64,000 nt of DNA from Tepidanaerobacteraceae bacterium. GTDB taxonomy: Bacteria > Bacillota > Thermosediminibacteria > Thermosediminibacterales > Tepidanaerobacteraceae. The stretch spans positions 4,622 to 68,621 of the forward strand of contig JBMNGH010000007.1 of the NCBI GenBank assembly GCA_050949725.1, in the 5' to 3' direction. Both the position numbers and the translations under genes were made by a program. The notes under the pieces were generated by a model that ran no database searches, was not told the origin of the DNA, and saw only the letters and a list, made by a program, of their open reading frames with translations. This document shows, piece by piece, positions 16,311 through 56,477 of this stretch (position 1 is the stretch's first letter; every line of letters begins with the position of its first letter).

Positions 16311-16374
16311 AAGAACCCCACCCGACGACGCAATCGATGATTGCTGTCGGGTCCCGGGAACCTTGCGCTTCGCT
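16311..16374 (+). repeat. dispersed hairpin repeat, copy 1 (first unit of a head-to-tail dimer, includes the linker TTGCGCTTCGCT)
   Basis: The sequence is AAGAACCCCACCCGACGACGCAATCGATGATTGCTGTCGGGTCCCGGGAACCTTGCGCTTCGCT. The outer helix is CCCGAC/GTCGGG and the inner helix is GCAATC/GATTGC. Confidence 0.9.
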
Positions 16375-16375
16375 A

Positions 16376-16435
16376 AAGAACCCCATCCAACACGCAATCG
16401 ATGATTGCTGCCGGGGCACGGGACCTTATTGTTTC
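16376..16435 (+). repeat. dispersed hairpin repeat, copy 2 (degenerate second unit of the dimer)
   Basis: The sequence is AAGAACCCCATCCAACACGCAATCGATGATTGCTGCCGGGGCACGGGACCTTATTGTTTC. The outer helix no longer pairs (CCAAC versus GCCGG) and the CCCGGG box is mutated. Confidence 0.85.
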
Positions 16436-16522
16436 AAATAAGGTCAAGTTGCCTTGACCCCAATAATCACTTAACTCATCCTATAGTAATTATAGGTTTT
16501 CGTATATTTTTAGTCAACAAGC

Positions 16523-17302
16523 TTATTTTGGCCTCATCTCTCCGGTAGACTTGTCAATATAATATTCACCCTTTATGAGAAGCTGAGAGATTGGTACAAT
16601 CTTGTAACCTTGGCGATCCAACTCATTTAAAATGATTTCTAAGGCTTCTGCAGTATTTTTTCCGTTGTTGTGGAATAACACAATTGAACCCGGTTTTATG
16701 CGTTTTATTACCCTGTCGTAGATTGCACTTGCGCTCAGATCTTTCCAATCCAATGAATCTACGTCCCACTGTATTACCTTATAATTTAGTTCAGAACAAG
16801 TTGTTATGAGCAAATTCCCATAATCGCCGAATGGCGGCCTGAATAGATTTGCTTCCTGCCCTGTTAGTTCCTTAATTTTTTTATGGGTCGTCTGTAACTC
16901 TTCAATCATTGATTCTTTGGACAAAGAGCTCATCCTTGGATGTGTTGCGGAGTGATTGCCTATCTCATGGCCTTCAGCGGCAATCCTACGTGTCATATCA
17001 GGATACTCTTCCATCCAGAATTTAACCAGAAAGAATGTTGTCTTTACTCCGTGTCTGCGTAAAATGTCGAGCAACCTTGGGGTAACGTCACTTCCCCATG
17101 CCGCATCAAATGATATAGCAGCTATTTTTTCCTCTGTCTGGACTCTGTATATTGGCACAAGTCTGTCTAACCCTCCAAAAACCAAAAGCGATTTTGTAGG
17201 CAAGTAACTTAAGCATGAAAAAACAATTATTATGACAGTAACAAGACATATTAATCCTGTAATATAATTACGTCGGATATTTTTCATCTTAATTGTAATC
17301 AC
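16523..17302 (-). CDS. polysaccharide deacetylase family protein (sporulation PdaA/PdaB-like)
   Basis: It has an N-terminal TM anchor followed by NodB-domain motifs (ISFDAAWG, HEIGNHSATHP, LFRPPFG, IVLFHN). Confidence 0.85.
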   Translation of the reverse strand: MITIKMKNIRRNYITGLICLVTVIIIVFSCLSYLPTKSLLVFGGLDRLVPIYRVQTEEKIAAISFDAAWGSDVTPRLLDILRRHGVKTTFFLVKFWMEEYPDMTRRIAAEGHEIGNHSATHPRMSSLSKESMIEELQTTHKKIKELTGQEANLFRPPFGDYGNLLITTCSELNYKVIQWDVDSLDWKDLSASAIYDRVIKRIKPGSIVLFHNNGKNTAEALEIILNELDRQGYKIVPISQLLIKGEYYIDKSTGEMRPK

Positions 17303-17415
17303 CCCCTAACTTAGTCATATTATTTTTATTCTCAGAGACAACAACTTATGATATGTCGAATATCCTGCATTCATGACGAATATTATTTAATAAAAACTAA
17401 AGGGGGGGGTTTTGA

Positions 17416-17715
17416 GTGTTGACTAAGGGTCAAAAGAAAGGTGTTATATTCGGTATAATATGGGGATTTTTTAGCTGGGTGCCCTATTACACAGAGTACT
17501 TAGGTAATATTAGAAATCTAATTGGCATTCCTGCGACACTGGGATTAAATTTAGAACTGGTCTTAAATAAGGGAAATGCATTTGTTTTCAGTATAATTAT
17601 GGGTGCGGGCATATGTTTTTTCATCGTAAGCCTTTTTGAGTTTTTAAGGACAGGAGTCAAAGTTATTGGTCTTTTCCCATATAAAAAGAGAAGGATGTTA
17701 AAGAGGGGGTTGTAA
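17416..17715 (+). CDS. small membrane protein, unknown function
   Basis: 99 aa with three hydrophobic spans. A GTG start lies 6 nt after a G8 tract (17402-17409) that could serve as the RBS. Its stop is 2 nt before the next gene. Confidence 0.45.
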   Translation: MLTKGQKKGVIFGIIWGFFSWVPYYTEYLGNIRNLIGIPATLGLNLELVLNKGNAFVFSIIMGAGICFFIVSLFEFLRTGVKVIGLFPYKKRRMLKRGL

Positions 17716-17717
17716 AC

Positions 17718-17993
17718 TTGATCCTCTGCAAAACTTTTTTTGCGACATTTGTACTTGTGTTCCTTGCAGAATTAGGCGATAAAACTCAATTATCAACTAT
17801 CCTAATGGCTGCACATAATGAATCTTTTTTGAGTGTTTTTTTGGGTGCCTCGCTTGCTCTGATACTAAATGCATTTATTGGTGTATATCTAGGAGGTATT
17901 ATCTCAAAATCTGTACCGATGGATTATATCCACTTGGGAGCGGGGATATCTTTTATTATTATTGGAATATTGCTCGTAACACAAAGGCTTTAA
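17718..17993 (+). CDS. UPF0016 (GDT1/TMEM165-like) half-size cation transporter subunit
   Basis: The signature AELGDKTQLSTI (E-x-G-D-K-T) lies in the first of three TM spans. At 91 aa it is one repeat of the normally two-repeat fold. Confidence 0.75.
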   Translation: MILCKTFFATFVLVFLAELGDKTQLSTILMAAHNESFLSVFLGASLALILNAFIGVYLGGIISKSVPMDYIHLGAGISFIIIGILLVTQRL

Positions 17994-18159
17994 TTTATTA
18001 TCACCTTATAATCCTTTATTTCAATAATTAAAATTGAATTAAAATTTCAACCTTTTGATGATAACATAAAAAATTGTTTTTGAAATGCCTAGCTTTTTTT
18101 TTATGCTTTCTGTTATAATAACAGATGGTGGTATAATAACTTTCTGAGGAGAGGTTACT

Positions 18160-19797
18160 TTGTCATTGGATACAGTATTCACTTTAATCGGTGGGCTAGG
18201 CCTTTTTATCTATGGAATGAGGCTCATGGGAGAGGGACTTGAAAAAGCTGCCGGCGACAAGCTCAAAAATCTGTTGGAACTCCTTACCAGAAATAGGTTC
18301 CTCGGTGTAACTGTCGGTATGCTTGTAACTGCAATCATACAAAGCAGCAGTGCTACAACCGTAATGGTAGTCGGCCTTGTAAATGCCGGCCTCATGAACC
18401 TCAATCAGGCCATCGGCATAATAATGGGAGCAAATATCGGTACTACCATGACCGCGCAGCTCATAGCATTTAAACTCACAGATTTAGCTCTCCCAGCAAT
18501 AGGTATTGGAACAGCCGTCTTTATGTTCAGCAAACAAAAAACCCAAAAATTTATAGGGGAAATAATACTCGGATTCGGGCTATTGTTTTTCGGGATGCAG
18601 ACAATGGAAATTGCTTTAAAGCCCCTTGCGAAAATGCCCGAATTTGTAAATTTCCTTGCTAGCTTTTCAAAGACACCTGTATTAGGCGTATTGGCGGGAT
18701 TTTTAACGACAGGCATTATTCAGAGCAGTAGTGCAACAATAGGAATTTTGCAGGCGCTGGCAGGACAAGGGATAGTGGATATTTCAATAGCACTGCCCAT
18801 ATTATTCGGCGATAATATTGGAACATGTGTCACAGCACTTCTCTCAAGTATAGGCACAAACATAACAGCAAGAAGAGCTGCTCTGCTTCATCTGATAATT
18901 AAAGTCATTGGTACTGTTATTTTTCTGTTTTTAATTCCTGTTTTAAAAACAGTAGTTTTAACAACCTCTCCTGACCCAATAAGACAAATAGCCAATGCTC
19001 ATACCATTTTTAACGTCACTAACACTATAATCCTGCTCCCCTTCTCTTTTGTGTTAATAAAACTGGTCACTCGTCTGATGCCAGGCGAACCAGTAATTGT
19101 TGAGAGAGGCTTAAAATTTATTGATGACAGACTGCTCAAAACCCCTTCAGTGGCTTTCTTACAGGTCAATAAAGAGATAGCCAGAATGGGGCGACTTTCA
19201 TTGGAAACCGTGAGAGATACAGTAAACATATTTCTGAACTACAATGAGCAAAAAGACAAGCTGGCCCGCGAAAAAGAGACTGTAATAAATGAACTCGCCC
19301 GTGACATAACCAGATTTCTCGCACTCCTTTCTAGGACACGTTTATCTTCGAATGAAGCAAGTTTTCTTACAAAAATGATAAATGCTGTCAATGATATGGA
19401 AAGGGTTGGAGACCATGCCATGAATATCTTGGAACTGGCAGAAGACAAACATGAGAAAAAACTTCCCTTTAGCAAGGAAGCTCTATCAGAATTAGTTCAG
19501 ATATCCTCAAAGGTTCAGGAAAACTTTTCCTTGTCTGTTGAAGCCTTTTCTGAGAACGATAGAGACAAATCAACAGCAATAATCATAAATGAAGAAGAAA
19601 TTGACAATATGGAAAAAAACCTCCGTGCAAATCATATAAAAAGACTAAATGAAGGTACATGTTATCCTAGTTCCGGTTTGTTGTTCCTCGACGTGTTGAA
19701 TAATCTAGAGCGTATAGGTGACCATGCTTTTAATTTGGCTTCATATATTCTCGATATTGATAAAAATTATAAGGATTTGACATTTATAAAAAAATAG
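18160..19797 (+). CDS. Na/Pi cotransporter family protein with C-terminal PhoU-like repeats
   Basis: The duplicated QSSSATT/QSSSATI motifs of the NaPi-II family are present. The C-terminus carries two PhoU-like repeats (MERVGDHAMNI, LERIGDHAFNL). Confidence 0.9.
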   Translation: MSLDTVFTLIGGLGLFIYGMRLMGEGLEKAAGDKLKNLLELLTRNRFLGVTVGMLVTAIIQSSSATTVMVVGLVNAGLMNLNQAIGIIMGANIGTTMTAQLIAFKLTDLALPAIGIGTAVFMFSKQKTQKFIGEIILGFGLLFFGMQTMEIALKPLAKMPEFVNFLASFSKTPVLGVLAGFLTTGIIQSSSATIGILQALAGQGIVDISIALPILFGDNIGTCVTALLSSIGTNITARRAALLHLIIKVIGTVIFLFLIPVLKTVVLTTSPDPIRQIANAHTIFNVTNTIILLPFSFVLIKLVTRLMPGEPVIVERGLKFIDDRLLKTPSVAFLQVNKEIARMGRLSLETVRDTVNIFLNYNEQKDKLAREKETVINELARDITRFLALLSRTRLSSNEASFLTKMINAVNDMERVGDHAMNILELAEDKHEKKLPFSKEALSELVQISSKVQENFSLSVEAFSENDRDKSTAIIINEEEIDNMEKNLRANHIKRLNEGTCYPSSGLLFLDVLNNLERIGDHAFNLASYILDIDKNYKDLTFIKK

Positions 19798-19875
19798 CTA
19801 AACTTGTTATCTGTGTAACCTGAAACATAATATTCTAACATAATATGCCCCTTTTTCGGTTAATTTATAAAAAAT

Positions 19876-19938
19876 AAGAACCCCACCCAACACGCAATCA
19901 AAGATTGCTGTTGAGTCCCGGGAACCTTGTTGTTTCAC
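19876..19938 (+). repeat. dispersed hairpin repeat, copy 3
   Basis: The sequence is AAGAACCCCACCCAACACGCAATCAAAGATTGCTGTTGAGTCCCGGGAACCTTGTTGTTTCAC. It is 1 nt shorter in the internal loop and has one outer-helix mismatch. It lies about 48 nt upstream of the SASP start. Confidence 0.9.
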
Positions 19939-19985
19939 AATAAGATTGCCAGTAAAAATTAAAAATACGGAAAGGGGGATTACAT

Positions 19986-20213
19986 TTGGCATCCGGGCAA
20001 AGCGGCAAAAAACATGTGGTTGAAGGTATTCACAGAGAGATGGACAATTTTAAATACGAGGTAGCAAGCGAGCTAAATATCCCTGTTTACCAAGGCTCTG
20101 AGGATTACTGGGGAAATATATCCTCAAGGGACTGCGGTGCCGTCGGAGGCAATATGGTGAGAAAAATGATACAAATGGCAGAAACTCAGATAGGTCAAAA
20201 GCAAAAGCTTTAA
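19986..20213 (+). CDS. alpha/beta-type small acid-soluble spore protein
   Basis: 75 aa with the SASP signatures KYEVASELNIPV and RDCGAVGGNMVRKMIQMAE. It has a TTG start after AAAGGGGGA. Confidence 0.9.
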   Translation: MASGQSGKKHVVEGIHREMDNFKYEVASELNIPVYQGSEDYWGNISSRDCGAVGGNMVRKMIQMAETQIGQKQKL

Positions 20214-20246
20214 ACTGAAACATTATAAACCAAAAAACGTAAATGT

Positions 20247-20295
20247 AACCGCCACAAGGTCAAACCATGAAACCAAGTGGCGGTTTAATTTTTAA
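20247..20295 (+). terminator. intrinsic terminator after the SASP gene
   Basis: AACCGCCAC (20247-20255) pairs with GTGGCGGTT (20277-20285), followed by TTTAATTTTT. Confidence 0.7.
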
Positions 20296-20302
20296 CTATT
20301 AA

Positions 20303-21925
20303 CTATGCTTCTTTGAGTTTTTCGAGTGTAAATATTATCTCATACATTAATCTATAGGGATTTAAAAGCGGATCATGGCCCAGCAAACTTGTAATTTTGT
20401 TTTTTCTATAAAAAATTGTATTCTTGTGTAAGTATAATTCATCAGATACGGCCTGCATATTTCCGTTATGTTCAATCAATTTTTCAAGTGTTTGCAGCAA
20501 TGATGATTTAGTTTGTAAATCATATTCTTTCAATCTTTCCAAAGCCTGATCTACAATTTTTTTAGTTGACTCTCTGTTCGCAAGTTGGTCTAAAAGAGTA
20601 TAAACACCTAAATCGGAATAAAAGATACAATTACCTCTTCCAAATATTTTCCTGCCCAATTTAATTGCTTTTATTGCTTCTTTATAACCTTTGGATATGT
20701 CCTGTATTTTGCCGAAATAATTGCAGATACCTATGGAGATAAACAGCTGGTTGTCTTTCGCGTATTTAATAATCCTATCACCCAGTTTTTTTGCACGTTT
20801 ATATAGGTTTTTTTCATCTTCCTTCCCCTCTAGCAAAACAATTATTAAATCACTTCTTAGTCCCACCAGATTTTTTGAATTGTCGTTTAAAATGATTTCC
20901 TCGATTTTTGGTAATATGAAATTTTTTGCATATAGCATACTGCCTTCTGCCTTGTTTTGTTTGTTTAGATCATTGAAATTATCAATATTACATATTAAAA
21001 GTAAATGCTTGTTTGTTAAATCCCAACCAAAACTTTTAGCTCTTGTGTGTGCAACCGTTTCATTGCTAAAATTCCATGTCATCAGGTCTGCTATAAAATC
21101 CCTTTTTAGGGTATCCTTCATATCTTCAAAGCGTTTCTTTTTTGTAAACATAAGCCCTATTGCTATAATGGCCTGTCCGATTGTCAATAATATTTTTTCA
21201 TCTTTGTCAATCATATCCAAAATTACTAAGTAACCATAGTATTGACTTGTCAATATGATCGGGTATATCAAAACTTTTTTTTGAGATACCCACAGAGGGG
21301 ATGGGTTACGGAAATCAACGATATTTCTTTTTACTATTTGTTTTATTTCAGGAATTTCCTCACTCTTAACCTTGTGTTTTGATATGCAAATATTATCACT
21401 ATCAAACAATGCTAACCTTTTTTTTATGATTGAACCTAATGTTGAAAGTAAATCATGTACATCTTTATCTGCTAAAATAACATCATACAATTGCTTTTGT
21501 ACATTTGATGCAAATAACAATTTCTCCTTTTCGATTTTTAATATTTCGTCCATTAATGGAGTTATAATGTCAACATATGCCATATCAGAGGGAACCAAGA
21601 TTAACGGTAAATTTAAGTTATTAGCGAGAGATATGACTTCTTCAGACACCTGTTTTAACCAAAATCCCAATGAGCATATAACCAGGCCGGAACAGGAGCG
21701 TTGTGCCAAAATCCTTATAATATTTAACTGTTTATCGATATCATCGGCAATAGAGTAAAAGGATGTTATGAATAATTCACCACCTCTAATCCAATTGGCT
21801 ACTTCAGAGGATGTGGCCTCCAAAACAGAGACGGAAGATATTTGTTTGTCAAGCCCTCCATGACCGGCTATTACTACCCCCTTTTTTAAGCCGCCTATTT
21901 CTATAGCTTTTCTTACAGATATCAT
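20303..21925 (-). CDS. PucR-family transcriptional regulator (paralog A)
   Basis: 540 aa. It has the N-terminal PucR-like ligand domain (VSVLEATSSEVANWIRGGELFITSFYSI) and a C-terminal PucR HTH (LYLHKNTIFYRKNKITSLLG). It aligns by eye along its whole length with 33529-35166. Confidence 0.85.
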   Translation of the reverse strand: MISVRKAIEIGGLKKGVVIAGHGGLDKQISSVSVLEATSSEVANWIRGGELFITSFYSIADDIDKQLNIIRILAQRSCSGLVICSLGFWLKQVSEEVISLANNLNLPLILVPSDMAYVDIITPLMDEILKIEKEKLLFASNVQKQLYDVILADKDVHDLLSTLGSIIKKRLALFDSDNICISKHKVKSEEIPEIKQIVKRNIVDFRNPSPLWVSQKKVLIYPIILTSQYYGYLVILDMIDKDEKILLTIGQAIIAIGLMFTKKKRFEDMKDTLKRDFIADLMTWNFSNETVAHTRAKSFGWDLTNKHLLLICNIDNFNDLNKQNKAEGSMLYAKNFILPKIEEIILNDNSKNLVGLRSDLIIVLLEGKEDEKNLYKRAKKLGDRIIKYAKDNQLFISIGICNYFGKIQDISKGYKEAIKAIKLGRKIFGRGNCIFYSDLGVYTLLDQLANRESTKKIVDQALERLKEYDLQTKSSLLQTLEKLIEHNGNMQAVSDELYLHKNTIFYRKNKITSLLGHDPLLNPYRLMYEIIFTLEKLKEA

Positions 21926-22109
21926 AATTAGCTCCTTTTTTTAAATTTATTAAAAAACAAATTTTTTGGCATCTTGGGCTTCATAATAGCAAATAAGGGT
22001 AACCTTAATTGTTACCCTTTTATATATTTCGGCATGCTATCAATAAATAATGTTACATATTTTATTTAAAACTATCAATATAACTAATTGGCAGGTAAAC
22101 CATATTTTT

Positions 22110-23570: not shown

Positions 23571-23631
23571 CTCAATGTTAACATTTACATAATTAAATTA
23601 TAACACACAAAAGTCTCTTTGCATCGGCCAT

Positions 23632-23922
23632 TTACTGCTCATCACAATTTTTTAGAATTTCTATTAGTTCAAAAGTCACTTCGTCCAACATGGAAATAAA
23701 CTTTTCTTCATCAGTCATTACCGATAACTTTTCATTTGCAATTTTTTCTGCAACCCTGTTTACTTCCTCATCGTCAAACAGATTGTATTTTTTGAGCAGA
23801 GCCATAAACTTTTCTATGGAATCTACAAGCCTGAAAGGGCCATACATCTTAGGTTCGTTTATACAGCCTTTTGCACTCGAAACAACATATGCCATATAAT
23901 CCAGTATGTCTCGCTTATTCAT
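23632..23922 (-). CDS. small conserved-looking hypothetical protein (96 aa)
   Basis: The ATG at 23922 overlaps the TGA of the upstream nitroreductase gene (ATGA), which suggests translational coupling. The protein is acidic and helical, and I cannot name a family with certainty. Its first 33 or so codons are duplicated at 28626-28750. Confidence 0.6.
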   Translation of the reverse strand: MNKRDILDYMAYVVSSAKGCINEPKMYGPFRLVDSIEKFMALLKKYNLFDDEEVNRVAEKIANEKLSVMTDEEKFISMLDEVTFELIEILKNCDEQ

Positions 23923-24446
23923 TTTTGCTCCCCCCATCGATTGATAAATGTGACTTCTTCTACAGGCCTCCTGGGAGGTGTTGAAGGTCTTTGGTCAGAA
24001 TAACCAAGGCTTATTATCAAATCTACGGAAATTTCATCCGGTAGATCTAGTATTCTCTTAACCGCCTCTTTATTGTATGATTTTACCGTGCAAGTGGCTA
24101 TTCCTTTTTCAGTAGCCATGAGCAGTATGTTCTGCGCTGCCATGGATACGTCTATTATGCTCAGCTCATCCCTGCCAAAAGCCCCTCCCCTTTCATAGGC
24201 CTTTTTACGGTCACTGCAAATCACTATCAGGTTCGGCGGGCCGCCTAGCAAACCTGGAGAAAATGCTTTGATTTGATTGCATATCTTTTCATCATCTACA
24301 ATTATAAAATACCAGGGCTGTATATTGCTCCCGGTTGGTGCATAGATGCCTGCTTCGATCAGTTCTTTAATCGTTTCTGTCGGCACTTTCTTTTTATCAT
24401 ATTTTCTGATACTTCTTCTTCTCTTTATTGTGTCCAAAATGCTCAT
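23919..24446 (-). CDS. nitroreductase-family protein
   Basis: The N-terminal RRSIRKY motif and the motifs APTGSNIQPW and ATEKGIATC place it in the FMN nitroreductase fold. Length is 175 aa. Confidence 0.85.
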   Translation of the reverse strand: MSILDTIKRRRSIRKYDKKKVPTETIKELIEAGIYAPTGSNIQPWYFIIVDDEKICNQIKAFSPGLLGGPPNLIVICSDRKKAYERGGAFGRDELSIIDVSMAAQNILLMATEKGIATCTVKSYNKEAVKRILDLPDEISVDLIISLGYSDQRPSTPPRRPVEEVTFINRWGEQK

Positions 24447-24487
24447 AAAATCTCCCTACCTCTTGTTTATTGTTTGAATAATTAATT

Positions 24488-24530
24488 GCTGTCAAAAGAA
24501 ATACGCTCTATGCGTATTTCTTTTGACAGC
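24488..24530 (-). other. perfect 19-bp inverted repeat (stem-loop) between the racemase and nitroreductase genes, with no U-tract
   Basis: GCTGTCAAAAGAAATACGC (24488-24506) pairs perfectly with GCGTATTTCTTTTGACAGC (24512-24530) around a 5-nt loop. Confidence 0.8.
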
Positions 24531-24548
24531 CGGGTATTTAACGTGAGT

Positions 24549-25280: not shown

Positions 25281-25309
25281 TTGTACTCCCTCCTTTACTT
25301 CCCCGTTTT

Positions 25310-28625: not shown

Positions 28626-28750
28626 ACAAGCCTGAAAGGGCCGTACATTTTCGGTTCGTTTATACAGCCTTTTGCACTCGAAACAACATATGCCATATAA
28701 TCCAGTATGTCTCGCTTATTCATTTTTGCTCCCCCATCGATTGATAGATG
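28626..28750 (-). pseudogene. 125-bp duplicated fragment of the nitroreductase 3' end / small-ORF 5' end junction
   Basis: This stretch is near-identical to 23825-23950. I count about six substitutions by eye, concentrated in CATACATCTTAGG versus CGTACATTTTCGG, plus one C deleted from the C6 run. It is in the same orientation as the intact copy. Confidence 0.85.
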
Positions 28751-28839: not shown

Positions 28840-28901
28840 AAGAACCCCACCCGACGACGCAATCAAAGATTGCTGTCGGGGCCCGGGAACCTTGTTGTTT
28901 T
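28840..28901 (+). repeat. dispersed hairpin repeat, copy 4
   Basis: The sequence is AAGAACCCCACCCGACGACGCAATCAAAGATTGCTGTCGGGGCCCGGGAACCTTGTTGTTTT. The outer helix is CCCGAC/GTCGGG. Confidence 0.9.
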
Positions 28902-28933
28902 ATAAAAAATGACAATAAAAGAGAGCAAGGTAT

Positions 28934-29074
28934 TCAGCCCTGCTCTTCATTCTTTTTTTCTTGTTTATTCTTTTCTGCCAGTACTGTCTTTCCACAATAC
29001 GGACATTTCCATGCCTCAAGATCTGCAGCGGAATATGAGCGTCTGCTGCAAAAAGGACATGTTGAGTATGGCAA
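28934..29074 (-). CDS. possible 46-aa zinc-ribbon protein (below the ORF-track cutoff)
   Basis: My own translation gives (TTG)PYSTCPFCSRRSYSAADLEAWKCPYCGKTVLAEKNKQEKKNEEQG, with two CxxC pairs. The TTG start lies 6 nt after GGGGGG. It is in a different frame from the 62-aa track ORF at 28900-29088. Confidence 0.3.
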   Translation of the reverse strand: MPYSTCPFCSRRSYSAADLEAWKCPYCGKTVLAEKNKQEKKNEEQG

Positions 29075-42963: not shown

Positions 42964-43027
42964 AAGAACCCCACCCGGCAACGCAATCAAAGACTCCTGC
43001 CGGGTCCCGGGAACCTTGTTGTTGCAC
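42964..43027 (+). repeat. dispersed hairpin repeat, copy 5
   Basis: The sequence is AAGAACCCCACCCGGCAACGCAATCAAAGACTCCTGCCGGGTCCCGGGAACCTTGTTGTTGCAC. The outer helix is CCCGGC/GCCGGG and the inner helix is partly degraded. It lies 28 nt upstream of the queG start codon. Confidence 0.9.
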
Positions 43028-43055
43028 ACAAGTATTTTTTATTCTCGAGAAAGGT

Positions 43056-44362: not shown

Positions 44363-44429
44363 TATTTGATACGTTTAATACTTACTATGTTCTTAGAAGC
44401 TAAGTCACATACTTTTAAAATCCAAAATA

Positions 44430-44590
44430 CCGCTATCTCCAAATTTTGACTACCTACCTCTCGATAGGTGGGTGTTCTCAACCGTGCTTCTATCGCTTTA
44501 CTGGGCATATGGCCCTCCTGAAAGTACATATCTACACAGCATGTGTGAACTCCCGTATTTATTTTGTAGGTTCAAAATAGGAGATTGGCA
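44430..44590 (-). ncRNA. candidate structured RNA, rod-shaped with an internal bubble (6S-RNA-like)
   Basis: No credible ORF covers this stretch. On the minus strand the 5' segment CAAUCUCC-U-AUUUUGA-ACCUAC pairs with the 3' segment GUAGGU-AG-UCAAAAU-UU-GGAGAUAG. Further in, GGGAGUUCAC pairs with GAGAACACCC, CAUGCU with AGCACG and CUUU with AAAG. The apex is a GGGC-CAUAU-GCCC hairpin (44503-44515). Confidence 0.35.
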
Positions 44591-44617
44591 AATATTCCAG
44601 ACAATTTCAGACGATTA

Positions 44618-44702
44618 TGGTGCGGGCGGTGGGACTTGAACCCACACGTCTGTTGACATACGCCCCTCAAACGTACCTGTCTGCCTGTTCCAGCACGCCC
44701 GC
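44618..44702 (-). tRNA. tRNA-Leu (anticodon GAG), CCA encoded
   Basis: The minus strand reads GCGGGCG-UG-CUG-GAACAGGCAGA-CAG-G-UACGU-UUGAGGG-GCGUA-long variable arm (GUC AACA GAC)-GUGGG-UUCAAGU-CCCAC-CGCCCGC-ACCA. This is a class II cloverleaf. Confidence 0.95.
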
Positions 44703-46865: not shown

Positions 46866-46924
46866 AATTACCATCCTTTCTTTAAACATATTAATTTGCT
46901 TTTATTAAGCATTTATTATAACCT

Positions 46925-48882: not shown

Positions 48883-49263
48883 CTAAATAGACGCAATAAA
48901 CTCCATTTCTATTTTTACATCTTTTGGCAACCTAGATACTTCAACACAGCTTCTTGCAGGGGGAGAATTTTTGAAATAGCCGGAATATATATCGTTTATC
49001 GTCGCAAAGTCATCCATATCTGCTATGAACAATGTTGTTTTAACTATGTTATCCATTGATGCTCCAAGGGATTCCAACAGCCCTTGCACGTTTTCCAAAA
49101 CCTGTTTTGTCTGTTCTTGAATGCCTCCGTCCACAATTTTTCCAGTAGCAGGATTAAGCGGTATCTGACCCGAAGCAAACAAAAACCCCCCCGATTTAAC
49201 CGCCTGTGAATAGGGTCCTATAGCGGCCGGTGCTTTTTCTGTGGAAATAACTTTCTTGTCCAT
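48883..49263 (-). CDS. ridA: RidA (YjgF/YER057c/UK114) reactive-intermediate deaminase
   Basis: 126 aa. The motifs are APAAIGPYSQAV, SGQIPLNP and ARSCVEVSRLPKDVKIEME. Confidence 0.9.
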   Translation of the reverse strand: MDKKVISTEKAPAAIGPYSQAVKSGGFLFASGQIPLNPATGKIVDGGIQEQTKQVLENVQGLLESLGASMDNIVKTTLFIADMDDFATINDIYSGYFKNSPPARSCVEVSRLPKDVKIEMEFIASI

Positions 49264-49293
49264 AAAATCACTCTCCTTTTAATAATACCTTAA

Positions 49294-50910
49294 TCATTCA
49301 ACGTACCATTTGGAAATGCTGTCAAATACATTACTGGTGTCAGGCGCAACTCCTTTGATTCTTTCACTGACACACACAATGCTATTGGGACTGTACAAGA
49401 AAAGATACGGTACATCACGTGCTATTATCTCTTGTGCTTCATACATTAACTCTTGAAATTTTTCCTCATCCTTTTCTACATTTGCTTTATCCAGTATAGC
49501 ATCAAGTTCATCTTCACTATAAGAAACAAAGTTATACCCATTTTTAATCGCCTTGCTTGAAAACATCGAATTTAAATCGGGAACAGTTAAGAGCTTCCAC
49601 CCCATTAAGGCCGCATCATACTGCTTATCTAACACCCTTTTTTTAAGTTCATCCCAAGAAAGGTTTACAAGTCTAACTGATATCCCTATTTCCTTTAGAT
49701 TTTCTTGTATATCAACAGCAGCTTGGTATCTTGAGGAATTAGATGAATTTACCAGTAGCTCAAATTCAAATTTATGGGTCTTTCCTTTAATTCTTTTTTC
49801 TTTTATCCCATCACCATCAATATCCTCCCATCCCGCATCCTTTAAGATTTGGGCAGCCATGTCCATATTGTACATGCTACTTTGTACAGCTGAATTAAAT
49901 ACCCATGAGTGAGGCAAAACAGGACCATCAACGATAATTCCCAAACCCTGGACGGCATTTTGGAGGATCGCAGGCCTGTCAATCCCGGCCAGTAATGCCT
50001 TCCTAACGCTAGCATCTTCAAAAATTGGGTTTCTTTGATTCAGGGCAACAAATTCCAAATAACTGGACGGATACTGAATCAGGTTCATGCCTTTTACATC
50101 GCGAAAGAAATTCCAGTCCTGATTATTGATAAAGAGCAGGTCAATTTCACCTTTTCTGAATGATTGTTTGGCAGAGGCTTTTTCTCCAAACATCCGTACA
50201 TTGACCTTTGCAATTATAGGCTTAGTGCCGAAATAGCTTTCATTCCTTTCTAGGGTTATTGTATCAGTTGTACTATTTGTTACTTTAAACTGACCTGTTC
50301 CAGGCACTAATTCCGCATTTTCTTCATTTGACTGGGATTTTAAATACGAAGCTGGCGCGATTCCAAAAGTCATTCTGCCGAGTATACCTCCGAAAGGCTG
50401 ATTTAAAGTAACCACAACAGTGCTTTCATCAGGTGCGCTATAATCTAATATATAGTCTAATTCCGGAAATACAGTTGCTTTGTCTTCTTTATATCTCGTT
50501 TCTTTTAAAAGAAAGAGCCTGTCAAAAGTCGCTATGACATCTTGTGATGTCAAATTTTGGCCATCATGCCACTTAACACCCTTTTTTAGGTGAAAGGTAT
50601 AGATTTTGCCATCATCGGAAATATCCCATGACTCAGCAAGACAAGGTTTAGTATGCCCCTTACCGTCAATTATCACAAGGCCGTTATACACCAAATTAGA
50701 AATTAACCTTTCTTCATCATTTTTAATCTGAAATGGGTCAAGTTTAACATGTGAACATACGCCGATTCTTAACTCGTCTGTAATATGTGGCATGTTCTGT
50801 GTATCCTCTTTTTCTATCGGCGTAAGTAAATTGTCATTAGAACAACCAGAAATCAGAAATGTTATACATAAGAGAAGTGCCGCTGCCAACTTCAAAATTG
50901 TTTTCATCAT
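49294..50910 (-). CDS. ABC-type peptide/nickel substrate-binding lipoprotein (family 5), orphan
   Basis: It has a lipobox (LISGCS) after MMKTILKLAAALLL, and its body pattern is that of SBP_bac_5. No cognate permease or ATPase genes lie nearby. Confidence 0.8.
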   Translation of the reverse strand: MMKTILKLAAALLLCITFLISGCSNDNLLTPIEKEDTQNMPHITDELRIGVCSHVKLDPFQIKNDEERLISNLVYNGLVIIDGKGHTKPCLAESWDISDDGKIYTFHLKKGVKWHDGQNLTSQDVIATFDRLFLLKETRYKEDKATVFPELDYILDYSAPDESTVVVTLNQPFGGILGRMTFGIAPASYLKSQSNEENAELVPGTGQFKVTNSTTDTITLERNESYFGTKPIIAKVNVRMFGEKASAKQSFRKGEIDLLFINNQDWNFFRDVKGMNLIQYPSSYLEFVALNQRNPIFEDASVRKALLAGIDRPAILQNAVQGLGIIVDGPVLPHSWVFNSAVQSSMYNMDMAAQILKDAGWEDIDGDGIKEKRIKGKTHKFEFELLVNSSNSSRYQAAVDIQENLKEIGISVRLVNLSWDELKKRVLDKQYDAALMGWKLLTVPDLNSMFSSKAIKNGYNFVSYSEDELDAILDKANVEKDEEKFQELMYEAQEIIARDVPYLFLYSPNSIVCVSERIKGVAPDTSNVFDSISKWYVE

Positions 50911-51013
50911 TGGGCCCCCAGTATAAACCAGAAACATTTGACATTATAATGAAATTATAGTATACATGAAATCAGAGGTCAATTTCCAAGGCCATTTAAC
51001 TCGGAGGTATGTT

Positions 51014-51418
51014 ATGGAAAGGACTTTTGTCATGATAAAACCGGATGGTGTAAGACGCGGACTGATAGGCACAATCTTAAAAAAATATGAAGACAAAGGG
51101 CTTAAAATAATCGCCGGAAAGTTGATGAACGTTCCAATAGAACTCGCCAAAAAACACTACTGTGAACACACCTCAAAACCTTTTTTTAATGAATTAATCA
51201 GCTACATAACATCTGGACCAGTCTTTGCAGCGGTTCTAGAAGGCAATAAGGCAGTGACAATCGTCCGCCTCCTCAACGGGGCCACTAAGGTTGAAGATGC
51301 CCTTCCCGGTACAATTCGTGGGGATATGGCAATTTCTACAACAGAAAACCTAGTCCACGGCTCGGACAGTGGTGACAGTGCAAAAAGAGAAATAGCCCTC
51401 TGGTTCCCTGAATTGTGA
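51014..51418 (+). CDS. ndk: nucleoside-diphosphate kinase
   Basis: It reads [19 protein letters not shown] and has the active-site motif NLVHGSDS. The ATG at 51014 lies 7 nt after GGAGG. Confidence 0.95.
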
Positions 51419-52453
51419 TTATTTCATTTTCTTAAGCTTTGGATTATCAACAATACCTGGAATTCTTCCCCTCTTTGCTATCGGTTTGCCGTCAACCATT
51501 TTTAAATCAAGGGTCATATCTATCGGCGGCGCCCCCGATATATAGCTTCCAACACCGAACGCATCTGCGCCCGCATCTGACAGAATTTTTATCCTGTCCG
51601 GACAAAGCCCCCCTGAAACAAATATCTTGATATGCTCATACCCCTTCTGATCTAATCTCTTTCTGAGTTCATAGACGAGCCCAGGGGTTACCCCGCCCCT
51701 TTCACTCGGCGTGTCAAGTCTTACACCTTCTAATGCGCTACCAAGAGCCTCGGCTAACGCAAGCGTCTCTTCTACCTCGTCCCTAAATGTATCGACTAAG
51801 ATAATCCTGGGAGAATCGGGAGGCATTATCTCATCATATACCTTTGCAACCGAAATTGTTTGGCCTGCGACAATCATGGCAGCATGTGGAATGGTCCCTG
51901 AAGGGTCCCTCCCAAGCAGCTTTGCAGCCAATATGCAGCTGGCGTTATTGGCCCCTCCTATTATGGCCGCGCGCTCCATTACAGGGGCAACAGCAGGGTG
52001 AACATGGCGGGCACCAAAGCAGATAAATACCTTGTCCTCTACAGCCTGACGACATTTCCATGCTGCGGTAGCCCAGGCACTTGAATGTGCCATCATGCCT
52101 AAAATCACTGTTTCGTAAATACCGAATTCCCGATAAGGCCCCTTTATCCGCATGACTGTATCCTTGGCCTCAAAGGTTTCACCTTCCGGTATAGCATCAA
52201 TCTCGACGGCCTTGTTTTTTAATAAGTTGAGCACTTCTTGGGTCCCGCACATCATCCCTGATTTCCTGGGAAATATTTCTGCTACTACTTCCTTTGAAGC
52301 AATTCCCATATGATTTAAAATATCCATTGTCTTTATGAAATATATGTCAGTCGTAAGCCCGGCTGCTATTTCATCATGATTTGCAGAAAACAATGGCCTG
52401 TCGTGTTCGAGTTTTAATCTTTTCACTTGAGACAATGTTTTAATTTCTTCCAT
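51419..52453 (-). CDS. nicotinate phosphoribosyltransferase (short, archaeal/clostridial type)
   Basis: The pattern TDIYFIKT...FGARHVHP...GVRLDTPS...IFVSGGL matches type II PRTases of the NAPRTase branch. Confidence 0.8.
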   Translation of the reverse strand: MEEIKTLSQVKRLKLEHDRPLFSANHDEIAAGLTTDIYFIKTMDILNHMGIASKEVVAEIFPRKSGMMCGTQEVLNLLKNKAVEIDAIPEGETFEAKDTVMRIKGPYREFGIYETVILGMMAHSSAWATAAWKCRQAVEDKVFICFGARHVHPAVAPVMERAAIIGGANNASCILAAKLLGRDPSGTIPHAAMIVAGQTISVAKVYDEIMPPDSPRIILVDTFRDEVEETLALAEALGSALEGVRLDTPSERGGVTPGLVYELRKRLDQKGYEHIKIFVSGGLCPDRIKILSDAGADAFGVGSYISGAPPIDMTLDLKMVDGKPIAKRGRIPGIVDNPKLKKMK

Positions 52454-52528
52454 AATAGTAAACCTCTCTTTCGTTTTAAAAAAAATTAACATATACAGCC
52501 GAGTATTATTAATTTATCAAAACAACCT

Positions 52529-53104
52529 CTAAAAAGCGTATAATTTTCTATACCACCTGTAAGCCTTTTTTACTTTTATGACAAATTCCCTCGTCTCATC
52601 AAACGGTATACCATCTTCTCTGGCATCGACTAACTTGCCGTTCTTTAACCACTTAGCTACATTTCCCCTGCCTCCATTATACGCAGCAAGGACAAGAGTC
52701 ATATCATCGCCAAACTCATTTTGTAAGGTTTTAAGATACCATGTCCCAATTTTGATGTTAAGTTCAGGGTCTTTTAGCTGCTCGGTTTCAAAATCCCGAA
52801 TTCCCATCTTGTCGGCTGACCATTTAGCTGTTTCAGGCATGAGCTGCATTAACCCAACAGCACCTTTAGAGGAAATTGCTTTTGGGGAAAAACCACTTTC
52901 CACCTTTATAACAGCAGCTGTTAAATAAGGGTCAACCTCATATTCGACAGAATATCGAGTAATTACATCCCGATACTTTAATGGGTAGATGTATTTCATA
53001 AACCAGAGGATATTATTGTGCAATGCAAATAACCCTATGACAATTACAAGTACAATAATAATTGCTGTTAATTTTTTTATCACTGGATAGATAAATCCTC
53101 CCAA
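52529..53104 (-). CDS. lytic transglycosylase (SLT domain) with N-terminal membrane anchor
   Basis: It has the catalytic motif VIKVESGF, plus GLMQLMP and AYNGG. Confidence 0.85.
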   Translation of the reverse strand: MGGFIYPVIKKLTAIIIVLVIVIGLFALHNNILWFMKYIYPLKYRDVITRYSVEYEVDPYLTAAVIKVESGFSPKAISSKGAVGLMQLMPETAKWSADKMGIRDFETEQLKDPELNIKIGTWYLKTLQNEFGDDMTLVLAAYNGGRGNVAKWLKNGKLVDAREDGIPFDETREFVIKVKKAYRWYRKLYAF

Positions 53105-53712
53105 ATTTTTTCTACCTGTCTTTTTGTATGTGCAATATCGCTACTGTTATCAATTATTCTTTTTGCAAACTTGAGTTTTTCCTCAAGAGGCATTTGAGCT
53201 CTTATTCTATTGATCGCCTGTCTAACTGTCATGTTTTTTTCGCGATTCATGAGCCTTTGAATTTGAGTTTTTTCATCAACCGTTACAACCCAGACCTCAT
53301 CAACATACGAATCGAGACCAACTTCCAAGAGCAAAGCGGCATCTATTACCACAACCCTCTGATTTTCTCTTTTGTAAACTAAAAGTTCATTTTTAATCTC
53401 ATCGATTATTTTGGGATGTGTAATACCATTTAAGATTTTTAGCTTTTTTTTATCGGAAAAGACTAAGCTCCCTAATTTTTTACGGTTTATCTTTCCATCA
53501 GGACATAAAATTTCATCACCAAAATGTTTTTTTATTTCAAACCAAGCTTCTTTTCCTGGAAGCATTACTTGCCTGCTTATCTTATCAGCATCTATTATAA
53601 CAGCACCTTTCTGTTTAAGCAATAAAGAAACCGTACTCTTTCCACTTGCTATCCCACCTGTAAGACCTATGACTAACAGATTAATGCCTCCTTCATTTAG
53701 AGTTCTCCCCAT
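53080..53712 (-). CDS. coaE: dephospho-CoA kinase
   Basis: It has IGLTGGIASGKST and the CoaE body pattern. It overlaps the polA stop by 16 nt. Confidence 0.9.
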   Translation of the reverse strand: MGRTLNEGGINLLVIGLTGGIASGKSTVSLLLKQKGAVIIDADKISRQVMLPGKEAWFEIKKHFGDEILCPDGKINRKKLGSLVFSDKKKLKILNGITHPKIIDEIKNELLVYKRENQRVVVIDAALLLEVGLDSYVDEVWVVTVDEKTQIQRLMNREKNMTVRQAINRIRAQMPLEEKLKFAKRIIDNSSDIAHTKRQVEKIWEDLSIQ

Positions 53713-56291
53713 GTGTATGCTTGCTTTAAGTCTACTAACAAAGGCACTTTAAGCAAAACGGCGTTTTCCATATGATGCTTTACTGCCTGTTTTACCTCAG
53801 AAAGCTCGTTTTTTGGAACATCAAGAATGAGCTCATCGTGTATTTGAAGCACCAACTTAGTTTTAAGATTATTTTGTTCTAGGTATTCATAAACCTTGAT
53901 CATTGCTATCTTTATTATATCTGCAGCACTTCCTTGTATTGGAGTATTCATAGCTGCCCTTTCCGCAAATGACCTAATGTTATAATTTTTGCTGTTTATA
54001 TCGGGTAAATACCGCCTTCGATTAAAGATAGTAGTAACATACCCCCTTGTTTTGGCTTGCTTAATTGTATTTCGAACATAATCCCTAACACCTTGATACC
54101 TTTTAAAGTATGCTTCTATATATTCTTTTGCTTCACTGTTGGTAATGCCCAACCCTTGAGCTAAACCATACTCGCTTATGCCATAAACGATACCGAAGTT
54201 TACAGCCTTTGCCTTATCCCTTAGCTCATATGAAACATCTTCTTTCGGGACTCCAAAGACTTCGCTTGCAGTCCTCGTATGTATGTCATCATTGTTTTTA
54301 AATGCCTCAATCAGACCGGTATCACCTGAAACATGTGCTAGTACCCGAAGCTCTATTTGTGAATAATCACCGGACAACAGAAGACGATCAGGGTTTTCTG
54401 CAGAAAAAACACTGCGAATTCTCCTTCCCTCATCTGTCTTTACCGGAATATTTTGCAAGTTTGGTTCAGTGCTGCTTATACGGCCGGTCGATGTCACAGT
54501 CTGATTATAATGTGTATGAATTTTTTCTGTCTCTTTGTCTAGGACGGCCAACAAGCCATCGGCATATGTTGATTTTAGCTTCATCAAGAATCTGTACCTC
54601 AAAATTTTCTCGACTATAGGGTGACTCGACTTCAGTTTTTCCAAAACATCTGCATCAGTAGAATATCCTGTCTTTGTCTTTTTAACTACAGGCAGATGTA
54701 ACTTTTCAAACAAGACTTCACCAAGTTGTTTTGGTGAATTAATGTTAAATTTTATCCCTGCCAGCTCATATATTTCATTTGTCAGGTCAGACATCTTTCT
54801 GCCAAACTCTGCTGAGAGTACCTCTAGTTTTTGCTTATCAGCTTTAATTCCAACTGTCTCCATTTCAGAGAGTACTTTGCCAAGGGGCATTTCTACATTT
54901 TCAAAAAGGTCATGCATTCCCACATCATCAAGTTGCTCGGCCAGAAAATCTTTCAATTGAATAAGCGCCAAAGCTCTAAGTCCGAAATCCTGGATATCCT
55001 GCAATTCTTTTCCCAAGTATTCATATGCTATATTTTCAATATCATAGCTGGATTTTGAAGGATTTAATAAATATGCGGCAAGCATTGTGTCAAACTTGCA
55101 ACCAAAGTTTATATTCCAGCTCTTAAAAGCACATCTGGCCAATTTCCAGTCGTGTGTAATTATTTTGCCAGATGAATGTTCAACAAAATTTTTTAGCAAT
55201 GACCTGATATCTTCATTAGAATCAAGTTCTTCCCTCTTTAGGTAATATGCACACTTTGCTGTAGAAAAACCTATTTCTAAGATATCATAAAGCGCAGGCG
55301 AAATTTTTGCTGTCTTTATGAGTATTGCCAAGAAATCCGAATTCTCAAGCACACTTATCGCTTTTTCCATATCATCAGTCGTTTTTATCCTGCTCGAAGT
55401 AATTTGTTCATGATTTGCTTCTTTTTTGTCTTGTCTTACTTCAATCTTGCTAATAAGGCTGTAAAACTCCATTTCTCGAAACAATTTTAAAAGGCGGTCA
55501 TAATCCGGGCTTTTTCTGCCGAATTCCGAAAAATCACATTCTACATCAAGTTCCCTCACTATAGTTGCCAATTTTTTGCTCATCAGAATCTGATCTTCAT
55601 AACACATTACTCCCTCTCTTATTTTTCCCTTTAGCTCATCCTTGCTTTTTAATAAATTTTCAACACTCCCAAATTGTTTTATGAGCTTAGATGCAGTTTT
55701 TAAGCCTATTCCAGGTATACCCGGAATATTGTCAGACGTATCTCCTTTTAGGGCTTTTAAATCTGTAATCCTTTCAGGTTCTACCCCATAACGATCTATG
55801 ACCTTCAGTGTATCATATAATTCCATCTTACTTATACCTTTAATTGTAAGCATCACATGTGTCAAATCAGACACTAGTTGAAGAGCATCCTTATCTCCAG
55901 TAACGATTATTGTGTATAATCCTGCATCTTCAGCCTTTTTGGAGAAAATACCCAACAAATCATCAGCCTCGAGCCCTTCCTTTTCCACATAAGAAACATT
56001 TAAAGCATTCAGCACATCCTTTAAAAGGTCGAATTGTCGGATCAGTTCATCAGGGGTTCTAGGTCGGGTGGCCTTATATTCTGAATACATGTCCTGTCTA
56101 AAAGTGGGCCCCTTTTTATCAAAAGCAACCATAACATAGTCAGGATTTTGCTCTTTTAACAGCCTAAAGAACATATTGATAAAGCCGAAAACGGCGTTTG
56201 TATATATTCCTTTTGACGACCTCAAGGGAGGCAGTGCATGAAAAGCCCTGTGTACAAGACTATTCCCATCAATTAACAACATCTTTTCCAT
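53697..56291 (-). CDS. polA: DNA polymerase I
   Basis: It has a 5'-3' exonuclease N-terminus (LLIDGNSLVHRAF), a 3'-5' exo-like middle region, and Pol A motifs (DYSQIELR, RRxAKAVNFGIVYG, QIHDEL). The ATG at 56291 follows GAGGTGA. Confidence 0.97.
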   Translation of the reverse strand: MEKMLLIDGNSLVHRAFHALPPLRSSKGIYTNAVFGFINMFFRLLKEQNPDYVMVAFDKKGPTFRQDMYSEYKATRPRTPDELIRQFDLLKDVLNALNVSYVEKEGLEADDLLGIFSKKAEDAGLYTIIVTGDKDALQLVSDLTHVMLTIKGISKMELYDTLKVIDRYGVEPERITDLKALKGDTSDNIPGIPGIGLKTASKLIKQFGSVENLLKSKDELKGKIREGVMCYEDQILMSKKLATIVRELDVECDFSEFGRKSPDYDRLLKLFREMEFYSLISKIEVRQDKKEANHEQITSSRIKTTDDMEKAISVLENSDFLAILIKTAKISPALYDILEIGFSTAKCAYYLKREELDSNEDIRSLLKNFVEHSSGKIITHDWKLARCAFKSWNINFGCKFDTMLAAYLLNPSKSSYDIENIAYEYLGKELQDIQDFGLRALALIQLKDFLAEQLDDVGMHDLFENVEMPLGKVLSEMETVGIKADKQKLEVLSAEFGRKMSDLTNEIYELAGIKFNINSPKQLGEVLFEKLHLPVVKKTKTGYSTDADVLEKLKSSHPIVEKILRYRFLMKLKSTYADGLLAVLDKETEKIHTHYNQTVTSTGRISSTEPNLQNIPVKTDEGRRIRSVFSAENPDRLLLSGDYSQIELRVLAHVSGDTGLIEAFKNNDDIHTRTASEVFGVPKEDVSYELRDKAKAVNFGIVYGISEYGLAQGLGITNSEAKEYIEAYFKRYQGVRDYVRNTIKQAKTRGYVTTIFNRRRYLPDINSKNYNIRSFAERAAMNTPIQGSAADIIKIAMIKVYEYLEQNNLKTKLVLQIHDELILDVPKNELSEVKQAVKHHMENAVLLKVPLLVDLKQAYTWGEL

Positions 56292-56348
56292 ATTTATCAC
56301 CTCGATACTATTATTTCACCAAAAAAACAGAAAAACCTGCAAAAAAAT

Positions 56349-56412
56349 AAGAACCCCACCCAACAACGCAATCAAAGATTGCTGTTGGGGCCCGGGAACC
56401 TTGCGCTTCGCT
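56349..56412 (+). repeat. dispersed hairpin repeat, copy 6 (first unit of a dimer, with the linker TTGCGCTTCGCT)
   Basis: The sequence is AAGAACCCCACCCAACAACGCAATCAAAGATTGCTGTTGGGGCCCGGGAACCTTGCGCTTCGCT. The outer helix is CCCAAC/GTTGGG. Confidence 0.9.
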
Positions 56413-56413
56413 G

Positions 56414-56477
56414 AAGAACCCCACCCAACAACGCAATCAAAGATTGCTGTTGGGGCCCGGGAACCTTTTTGTTGCAC
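56414..56477 (+). repeat. dispersed hairpin repeat, copy 7 (second unit of the dimer)
   Basis: It is identical to copy 6 over the first 54 nt and then ends TTTTTGTTGCAC. Confidence 0.9.

Follow-up and report, generated by a model that had tools for sequence, protein, structure and literature searches.

The stretch analysed here, 64,000 nt of contig JBMNGH010000007.1 of a Tepidanaerobacteraceae bacterium (positions 4,622 to 68,621, forward strand; the window in what follows), contains seven units of a hairpin repeat of ~66 nt at five intergenic sites. We propose that they represent a mobile repeat, non-autonomous and structure-dependent, of the broad REP/PATE/MITE-like class, and we put the probability of this at roughly 0.55. 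The repeat is present at some orthologous sites and absent from others, one filled and empty pair differs by the insertion of a single unit, and the flanks define a target with AAT on the left and an A-run on the right. Units typically land at a TAA stop or at the foot of an intrinsic terminator, and it is always the right end that faces the hairpin.

Insertion sites and array dynamics

The spacer between the isochorismatase gene and queG measures 120 nt in the window, where it holds one unit, against 50 and 41 nt in two relatives that lack the unit and have the same gene order (72% and 68% QueG identity). In the 68% relative an rve-type (DDE) integrase gene (L123:11049-12128) lies ~4 kb from the empty queG site, with no unit nearby. 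At another locus the filled site of Parvimonas sp. G1425 reads ..ACATAAAAAT, then the unit (AAGAACC...66 nt...CACAAT), then AGAAGCTATTGAATTTTTCAATAGCTTTTTT, with AGAAGC.. and a terminator at the right, whereas the empty site of P. parva and of a third lineage reads ..ACATAAAAGCAGAAGCTATTGAATTTTTCAATAGCTTTTTT, that is, ACATAAAAGC joined directly to AGAAGC.. and the terminator. The gain is exactly one unit, placed between the TAA stop codon and the pre-existing terminator, and nothing is duplicated. A metagenome scan with the N-terminus of PolA for further empty sites returned no relatives.

Across 107 sites the left flank shows A (0.84), A (0.90) and T (0.94); the right flank opens with A (0.82) and A (0.86) and then becomes A-rich. 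Within ~85 nt of the right end there is a terminator-like hairpin at 39 (+ strand) and 55 (- strand) of these sites, compared with 8 and 6 for the left flank. This polarity of the right end toward the hairpin arises because of the preference for AAT followed by an A-run, as A-runs lead into terminator hairpins read on either strand. At 13 sites the TAA of the upstream gene itself lies within AATAAG (distance to the upstream gene, -2). Departures of the left flank from the consensus (AGT, AAG, ATT, AAC, TTG) leave the right end unchanged at AAT; therefore, the matching ends are not a target duplication. Terminal inverted repeats together with target-site duplications had been named beforehand as the features that would make the units MITEs, and neither was found at the unit ends or in the filled and empty pair, the ends AAGAACCCC.. 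and ..TTCACAAT being non-complementary and not inverted repeats. Insertion 3' of (A)AAT, in one orientation and without duplication, is the behaviour of IS200/IS605-type elements.

The number of units is strain-variable at three of the five window sites, in each case between identical flanking proteins: site 1 has two units in the window, three in L110 and a rearranged three in L109; site 3 has one in the window and two in L113; and site 5 has two in the window and one in L133 and L134, both of which are without unit 56349..56413. An orthologous array likewise has two units in Parvimonas sp. G1425 and at least four in Parvimonas sp. C2, and many metagenome assemblies and contigs break within a unit.

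Structure and covariation of the unit

With the flanks in register and 126 distinct units aligned, the unit follows (A)AT and consists of AAGAACCCCA, a bipartite hairpin P1, (N)NCCCGGGAACC and a variable hairpin P2 (TTGTTGT-loop-ACAAT, continuing to ACAATAA), after which comes AA(A/G). The original prediction described a core with a hairpin, which stands, but its unit was too short: the real one extends 3' to ~66-69 nt, and the GTTGTT at the 3' end of the described core is the 5' strand of P2 (CTTGTTGT-loop-ACAATAAG). P1 comprises CCCnnn/nnnGGG, an asymmetric internal loop (usually 3 nt vs 1), an inner helix of 6 bp and a loop of 3-4 nt, while P2 ranges in length from 5 bp to 19 bp. In arrays the 3' strand of P2, AATAAG, overlaps the start of the next unit, and units abut via a shared 14-nt hairpin with no spacers. 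An outer AAG/CTT helix closing the unit was considered and is unsupported, with AACAACC and AAAAACC variants left uncompensated on the opposite side, and reading frames through the unit were rejected on the array period of 68-69 nt, mostly not a multiple of three. One copy in a Clostridia metagenome-assembled genome (MAG SM3-B6.2, L048:5321-5375) is palindromised, its left arm AAGAACCCCACCCAAC being mirrored exactly at the right (GTTGGGTGGGGTTCTT) in place of the block CCCGGGAACCTT, and it looks as if one arm had been copied from the other.

The two-part hairpin with compensatory substitutions, first proposed from the window copies, is real in the 126 units, which come from ~56 assemblies. We tested a hand-written structure against column shuffles and against sliding of the partner by 1-3 columns: 88% of cells were paired, compared with 79.4 ± 0.3% in the shuffles and 34-45% with slid partners, and 303 cells had changed on both sides where 94 ± 8 were expected, a number reached by 0/500 shuffles. 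Double changes occur in 14 of 23 pairs, with strong covariation in P1a, P1b and the tip of P2. The inner helix is found as GCAATC/GATTGC, CGATGC/GCATCG, CGACGC/GCGTCG, AGCAGC/GCTGCT and CCAAATC/GATTTGG, the outer helix as ATC/GAT, GAC/GTC, AAC/GTT, GTT/AAC and GC/GC, and the tip of P2 as GT/AC, AC/GT, GC/GC and AT/AT. The P1 variants are lineage-specific and therefore point to amplification within each lineage.

Because the first genome scan had fixed both sequence blocks, a second scan, of metagenomes, was anchored on the inner helix alone. Among the 56 distinct true copies found in this way, departure from the consensus per site was 5% in the left block and 4% in the right block, as against 13-21% in the outer stem, and was ~7% in P2; therefore, the unpaired blocks are the most constrained part of the unit. 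The 19-mer ACGCAATCAAAGATTGCTG of the inner helix also occurs in an unrelated conserved non-coding sequence (L204:5585-5700 and ~35 metagenome loci from human gut and fermentation) with the layout CTTTCTTTGAAACC..CTAAGCTACACA, the 19-mer, TTCCGCTAAG..CAAAGAAAG, for which no Rfam match was found at E < 0.01; the shared 19-mer is probably due to chance. The same hairpin tip, on a different outer stem, is seen in a second small family, GACCTACA followed by the 19-mer and TTAGGTC (L244, L267, L274, L275). As candidates for relatives of the repeat, the 19-mer matches outside the family were set aside, the unique ones occurring at about chance number and having no Rfam match.

Units of the window

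Reading of the sequence agrees with the original prediction on all seven units, on their five intergenic sites and on the + strand. An independent repeat search recovered all of them as one family, and a 25-nt degenerate pattern matched the window five times, with 0.00 matches expected from shuffles. A covariance model built from the 126 relatives and run on the whole window without filters returned six matches with E = 1e-11 to 1e-17, followed by a next best match at E = 0.76 and none with E < 2 on the minus strand; the decayed unit at 16376 was swallowed by the flank of its neighbour.

Site 1 is an array of two, in which the first unit (16311..16375, +; 76 bits with the covariance model) has its core at 16311-16364 and an atypical P2/linker, GCGCTTCGCTA, and the second (16376..16439, +; 37.7 bits with nhmmer) is decayed, as had been noticed before (TCCAAC opposite GCCGGG; CACGGGACCTT), and ends in ATTGTTTCAAAT. 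Site 2 is a single unit including P2, GTTGTTTCACAAT (19876..19941, +; 88 bits), with one stem mismatch (GTTGAG); it lies 78 nt past the stop of the Na/Pi cotransporter gene and ~45 nt ahead of a SASP gene, in sense orientation. This SASP gene (~19986-20213, +; PF00269, 75 aa) is a further observation, falling outside the list of open reading frames (ORFs) of the window, which holds ORFs of at least 90 aa. Site 3 is a single unit with an enlarged P2 loop, GTTGT-TTTATAAAAAATG-ACAAT (28840..28916, +; 89 bits), and site 4, in the isochorismatase/queG spacer, a single unit whose inner helix is damaged (GACTCC; 42964..43033, +; 76 bits). Site 5 is again an array of two, the first unit (56349..56413, +) consisting of the core and the linker GCGCTTCGCTG and being matched by the covariance model, and the second (56414..56480, +; 83 bits) having a canonical P2, TTTGTTGCACAAT. 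The three paired states first described for the outer stem are all present: CCCGAC/GTCGGG at 16311 and 28840, CCCAAC/GTTGGG at 56349 and 56414, and CCCGGC/GCCGGG at 42964. The start codons at 16286, 42935 and 56291 do lie 24, 28 and 57 nt from their sites, as first described. In both window arrays the left unit (16311-16375 and 56349-56413) carries an atypical P2 and ends in GCGCTTCGCTR instead of ..CACAAT, which suggests that a two-unit composite may be spreading as a whole.

Distribution across genomes, phages and plasmids

Scanning one genome per species with the pattern AAGAACCCCA-N25-45-CCGGGAACCTT gave at least 108 loci, three of which are chance matches in GC-rich genomes; among the matches listed, the remaining loci amount to at least 132 units with at least 111 distinct cores in ~56 Bacillota assemblies. 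The carriers include Parvimonas, Peptoniphilus, Fenollaria, Tissierellia, Syntrophomonas, Ruminiclostridium, Eubacterium, Senimuribacter, Sedimentibacter, Oscillospiraceae, Acutalibacteraceae, Lachnospiraceae, Thermoanaerobacterales and other Clostridia and Bacillota. Units often stand head to tail in arrays of two to four (period 68-69 nt), and most sites are single units. BLAST found no match in 50,697 phage records, and its sole match among plasmids was an Acetoanaerobium chromosome of 2.6 Mb registered as a plasmid. The full pattern had 0 matches in 2.9 million viral contigs (IMG/VR), in which two 15-mers occurred at about chance level; only two of these loci carry a true copy, and one of the two sits at the extreme edge of a prophage contig. 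The element is restricted to the chromosomes of Clostridia and related Bacillota and is almost absent from phages and plasmids.

One unit is embedded in a block of ~330 nt shared by Oscillospiraceae/Acutalibacteraceae MAGs (L054, L058, L070, L071, L085; e.g. L058:5860-6125), and in a five-way alignment nearly all columns of the block are identical across species, exceeding the neighbouring coding sequence of pyruvate phosphate dikinase (PPDK). The block has a 3'-end fragment of the PPDK gene upstream of the unit, with the TAA stop within AATAAG, and ~190 nt and a terminator downstream. In L070 it stands in a different upstream context.

Orientation and the case for a structured RNA

A functional structured RNA module, either a cis-acting hairpin that stabilises or processes mRNA ends or a multimerisable protein-binding module, is a possible but distinctly less probable explanation of the units. 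Both hairpins covary strongly, the unpaired blocks are kept across bacterial classes in the manner of a non-coding RNA, and the units are strictly intergenic and near stops, starts and terminators. The original prediction saw a single orientation, which holds within the window but not elsewhere: orientation is mixed across the 114 sites listed, of which 39 have both flanking genes antisense to the unit and 25 have both in sense; the genes converge at 16 and diverge at 10. Therefore, a fixed strand-specific RNA role is unlikely. In Bacillota an excess of G over C marks the leading strand, and by local GC skew 61 of the 99 loci listed have the + form on the C-rich strand and 38 on the other, a weak bias; in the complete genome of Parvimonas sp. 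G1425, four of the ten copies listed are on the G-rich (leading) strand and six on the other. The + strand of the window is C-rich (skew -0.077) and carries the minority of genes. With mixed orientation and weak skew elsewhere, the five-for-five pattern of the window is thus a mild bias plus chance.

It had also been proposed that the units are transcribed as reverse complements within untranslated regions (UTRs), and this fits site 1 but not as a general rule, given the mixed orientation. Upstream of the site 1 array there is a strong minus-strand promoter match, TTGACT-17-TATAAT (11/12 positions; 16517..16489, minus strand), so transcription from it would place the reverse complement of the array in the 5' UTR of the response-regulator operon; judged by this promoter match, the array is probably part of that UTR. 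Sites 4 and 5 showed no convincing promoter on either side. As minus-strand RNA the unit is ~3 kcal/mol more stable in 121/126 units, via G-U pairs in the invariant AAGGUUCCC/GGGGUUCUU, whereas in P2 the retained G-T wobble pairs on the + strand only (98/126). These signals thus favour opposite strands, and the minus-strand one, resting on invariant letters, counts as a single observation. P1 has no strand preference, its fold energies being equal on both strands and its G-T and A-C mismatches equally frequent, and as single-stranded DNA both strands fold at ~-12 to -14 kcal/mol. An attempt to read the functional strand from wobble pairs was accordingly abandoned, P1 giving no preference and the invariant-letter signals conflicting. 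A reading of the left flank as a -10 promoter box was also rejected, as the logo does not fit and the would-be A-11 position is A at only 50% of sites. The strain-variable copy number, the empty orthologous sites and the absence of a matching Rfam family speak further against the RNA module.

Mechanism and remaining alternatives

For the mobile repeat that we prefer, the invariant unpaired blocks would be the recognition sites of a trans-acting enzyme, and the covarying hairpins would have to form in a single strand for propagation. The combination of invariant blocks with covarying hairpins makes a single-strand 'peel-and-paste' by an HUH/Y1-type transposase, as in IS200/IS605 or RAYT, the most likely mechanism, although we infer it only, since no mobilising enzyme was found. 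Alternatively, a recombinase might integrate a circular unit at the (A)AT core. Arrays would then lengthen or shorten by recombination or slippage between units. Copies between co-directional genes would be co-transcribed as a stable hairpin, and a REP-like effect on mRNA, if there is one, would be incidental to this.

Several points weigh against mobility. The strand bias expected of an IS200/IS605-type element is weak (61:38, and 4:6 in one complete genome; small samples, from the matches listed). At the sole clean filled and empty pair the junction dinucleotide is GC where the site is empty but AT to the left and right of the unit where it is filled, a difference that would need a prior polymorphism or conversion of the core, and which integration of a circle would also explain. 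Changes in array length can be explained by recombination between units and alone are no proof of transposition. No transposase or recombinase was seen near any copy in ~1.7 Mb of surrounding sequence, whole genomes not having been scanned, and the same stretches contained no unit pair enclosing a mobility gene and no split unit with cargo. Nor was a TnpA (Y1)/TnpB partner with unit-like ends seen in the ~1.7 Mb (again, whole genomes were not scanned). A search for an autonomous parent ended in rejection of the candidates, since orphan half-sites were truncated or random and the genes between inverted copies were metabolic. The two hairpins of the unit covary yet are dissimilar, whereas the ends of IS200/IS605 carry similar hairpins. 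Moreover, near-identical blocks across bacterial classes are unusual for selfish repeats, and near-absence from phages and plasmids is atypical of them; this conservation and this absence therefore keep a host function, as an RNA hairpin or a protein site, under consideration.

We entertain, more tentatively, a specific form of the proposal in which the element would be more than a selfish repeat: it would serve as substrate for an enzyme or binding protein conserved in Clostridia that recognises AAGAACCCCACCC and CCCGGGAACCTTGTT on the folded strand; candidates would be proteins such as a domesticated RAYT-like single-strand transposase or a structure-specific recombinase. If this is true, the repeat would represent the first REPIN-like host-element system across several Bacillota classes, with a new insertion chemistry in which a unit circle integrates at the (A)AT core at the foot of a terminator. 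More generally, if our proposal is true, one structured repeat family of ~66 nt is common to Clostridia from gut, mouth and digesters and to thermophilic ones. Conservation across bacterial classes would then be possible for small hairpin repeats, which would point to a widespread enzyme acting on folded single-stranded DNA, and the unit would be a defined substrate with which to find that enzyme. The strain-variable arrays could serve for typing, the repeat breaks metagenome assemblies, and stable hairpins in 5' UTRs and in gaps between stop and terminator (polA, queG, two-component operons) could alter expression.

That the unit is a chromosomal DNA site for a host protein, either a factor of the ParB/Noc type (nucleoid, segregation or occlusion) or gyrase/IHF as in BIMEs, with hairpins that are incidental or form a cruciform, appears doubtful. 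Such a site would agree with the restriction to chromosomes, the near-absence from phages and plasmids and the invariance of the blocks across classes, and the GGTTCCCGGGAACC of Parvimonas copies is a perfect 14-bp palindrome resembling the B. subtilis Noc site, ATTTCCCGGGAAAT. However, the palindrome is not kept outside Parvimonas, most lineages having GGGTCCCGGGAACC or GGGTACCCGGGAACC, stem covariation is unexpected for a site bound as duplex, and presence/absence and array polymorphism among close strains do not suit a positioned architectural role. An ordinary MITE derived from an insertion sequence with a DDE transposase, terminal inverted repeats and target-site duplication, which a small, high-copy, intergenic, imperfect palindrome with AAT(AA) at both ends might recall, is largely refuted and highly improbable, given the non-inverted termini, the left-flank variants unmirrored at the right end, the head-to-tail arrays without intervening target sequence and the filled and empty pair without a duplicated target.

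Other features of the window

The neighbours of the units in the window are housekeeping genes, encoding a response regulator and kinase, a Na/Pi transporter, a PucR-type regulator, a ZIP transporter, an isochorismatase, QueG, PolA and a DUF4349 anti-sigma-like protein. The QueG of the window has 100% identity to a deposited protein, which assigns the window to a Thermoanaerobacterales MAG. To the right of site 5, and abutting its array, we read in the sequence an A-run, an imperfect hairpin (GCCCTGA..TCAGAGC) and a T-run (56481..56517, outside the unit), which look like a bidirectional terminator, the typical right-flank context of the family; a terminator scan did not call this interval (0 terminator-like sites). 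Downstream of the site 3 unit a terminator-like hairpin (AGAGCAAGG..CCCTGCTCT) followed by a T-run was read at 28924..28966 (+).

A direct repeat of 110 nt, 97% identical, occurs at 23825-23934 and 28626-28735. A DUF6092 gene (23632-23937, minus strand) has the first copy as its 5' end; the second is an orphan fragment ~100 nt left of site 3, which is called as a 35-aa gene fragment in the sister contig L112. A 6S RNA gene (44415-44606, -; RF00013, 59.6 bits) adjoins a tRNA-Leu(gag) gene (44618-44702, -), and a second tRNA-Leu gene, with anticodon caa, lies at 62316-62402 (-).

Comparison with known families

No named family fits the repeat, in line with the original prediction, which could not assign it to one. 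In the whole window only 6S RNA and tRNA pass the gathering threshold of Rfam 15, and permissive Rfam scans of 56320-56510 and of a four-unit array (L057) gave chance-level matches only (E > 1). A literature search with conserved 12-13-mers and with the terms Clostridial repeats, REP, RAYT, PATE and MITE found no description, most subscription journals lying outside its coverage, and the surveys of REP and HUH elements contain no mention of Clostridial repeats of such a kind. The family is thus apparently undescribed. A CRISPR or type III antitoxin RNA array was rejected, as there are no spacers, most sites are single units and the neighbouring genes are unrelated.

The analogy with REP/BIME elements drawn in the original prediction holds for a hairpin repeat in an intergenic niche but does not extend to REP membership. 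Like the REP/BIME/REPIN elements of Proteobacteria, which depend on RAYT (TnpA-REP, a Y1 HUH enzyme), the units are short GC-rich imperfect hairpins in high copy number, often between a stop and a terminator or between operon genes, clustered and passively transcribed, and in both cases propagation probably depends on a folded single strand. A REP is defined as a palindrome of 20-40 nt, one foot of which carries a conserved tetranucleotide, GTAG or CGTC (PMC3733652). No GTAG/CGTC head is present on either strand of the unit, whose blocks are AAGAACCCCA and CCCGGGAACC and whose length is ~66 nt, with two dissimilar hairpins and long invariant unpaired blocks. Further, its clusters are direct head-to-tail tandems where REPs form inverted pairs, and its sequence is kept across classes, whereas REPs are species- or genus-specific. 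No RAYT was seen between the two inverted unit pairs sampled (which enclose an amidase, a pyridoxal phosphate (PLP)-dependent enzyme etc.); whole genomes were not searched.

IS200/IS605 elements and PATEs resemble the unit in having no inverted termini, no target duplication and hairpins at or near the ends, and in one-orientation insertion 3' of a short AT-rich target that resembles their own right end (AAT before the unit and AAT at its end); the internal GTT of the unit could pair with target and right end in the fashion of an IS200/IS605 guide sequence. Apart from its dissimilar hairpins, the unit differs from IS200/IS605 in that P2 is terminal, reaching the very end of the unit, rather than subterminal, and in its weak lagging-strand bias, and with 66 nt it is smaller than known PATEs. 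Integron attC sites, which are recognised as a folded single strand by structure over sequence, share with it the conserved short end sequences, a variable but always-paired centre, asymmetric unpaired bases and a length of ~60-70 nt. By eye, however, the cores of the unit do not fit RYYYAAC/GTTRRRY on either strand, its copies stand among housekeeping genes and not after cassettes, there is no integrase or attI, and it forms tandem arrays.

The Correia elements of Neisseria, BOX, RUP and SPRITE of pneumococcus and RPE of Rickettsia are scattered, structured repeats without coding function that come to lie in UTRs and, like the unit described here, can change transcript stability and break assemblies. 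Correia and RUP have inverted termini and TA duplications, BOX has a modular box structure, and each of these families is, to our knowledge, confined to one genus. The repeat of the window is of this small-hairpin-repeat kind, and stands beside REP, MITE, PATE and attC without being a member of any of them.

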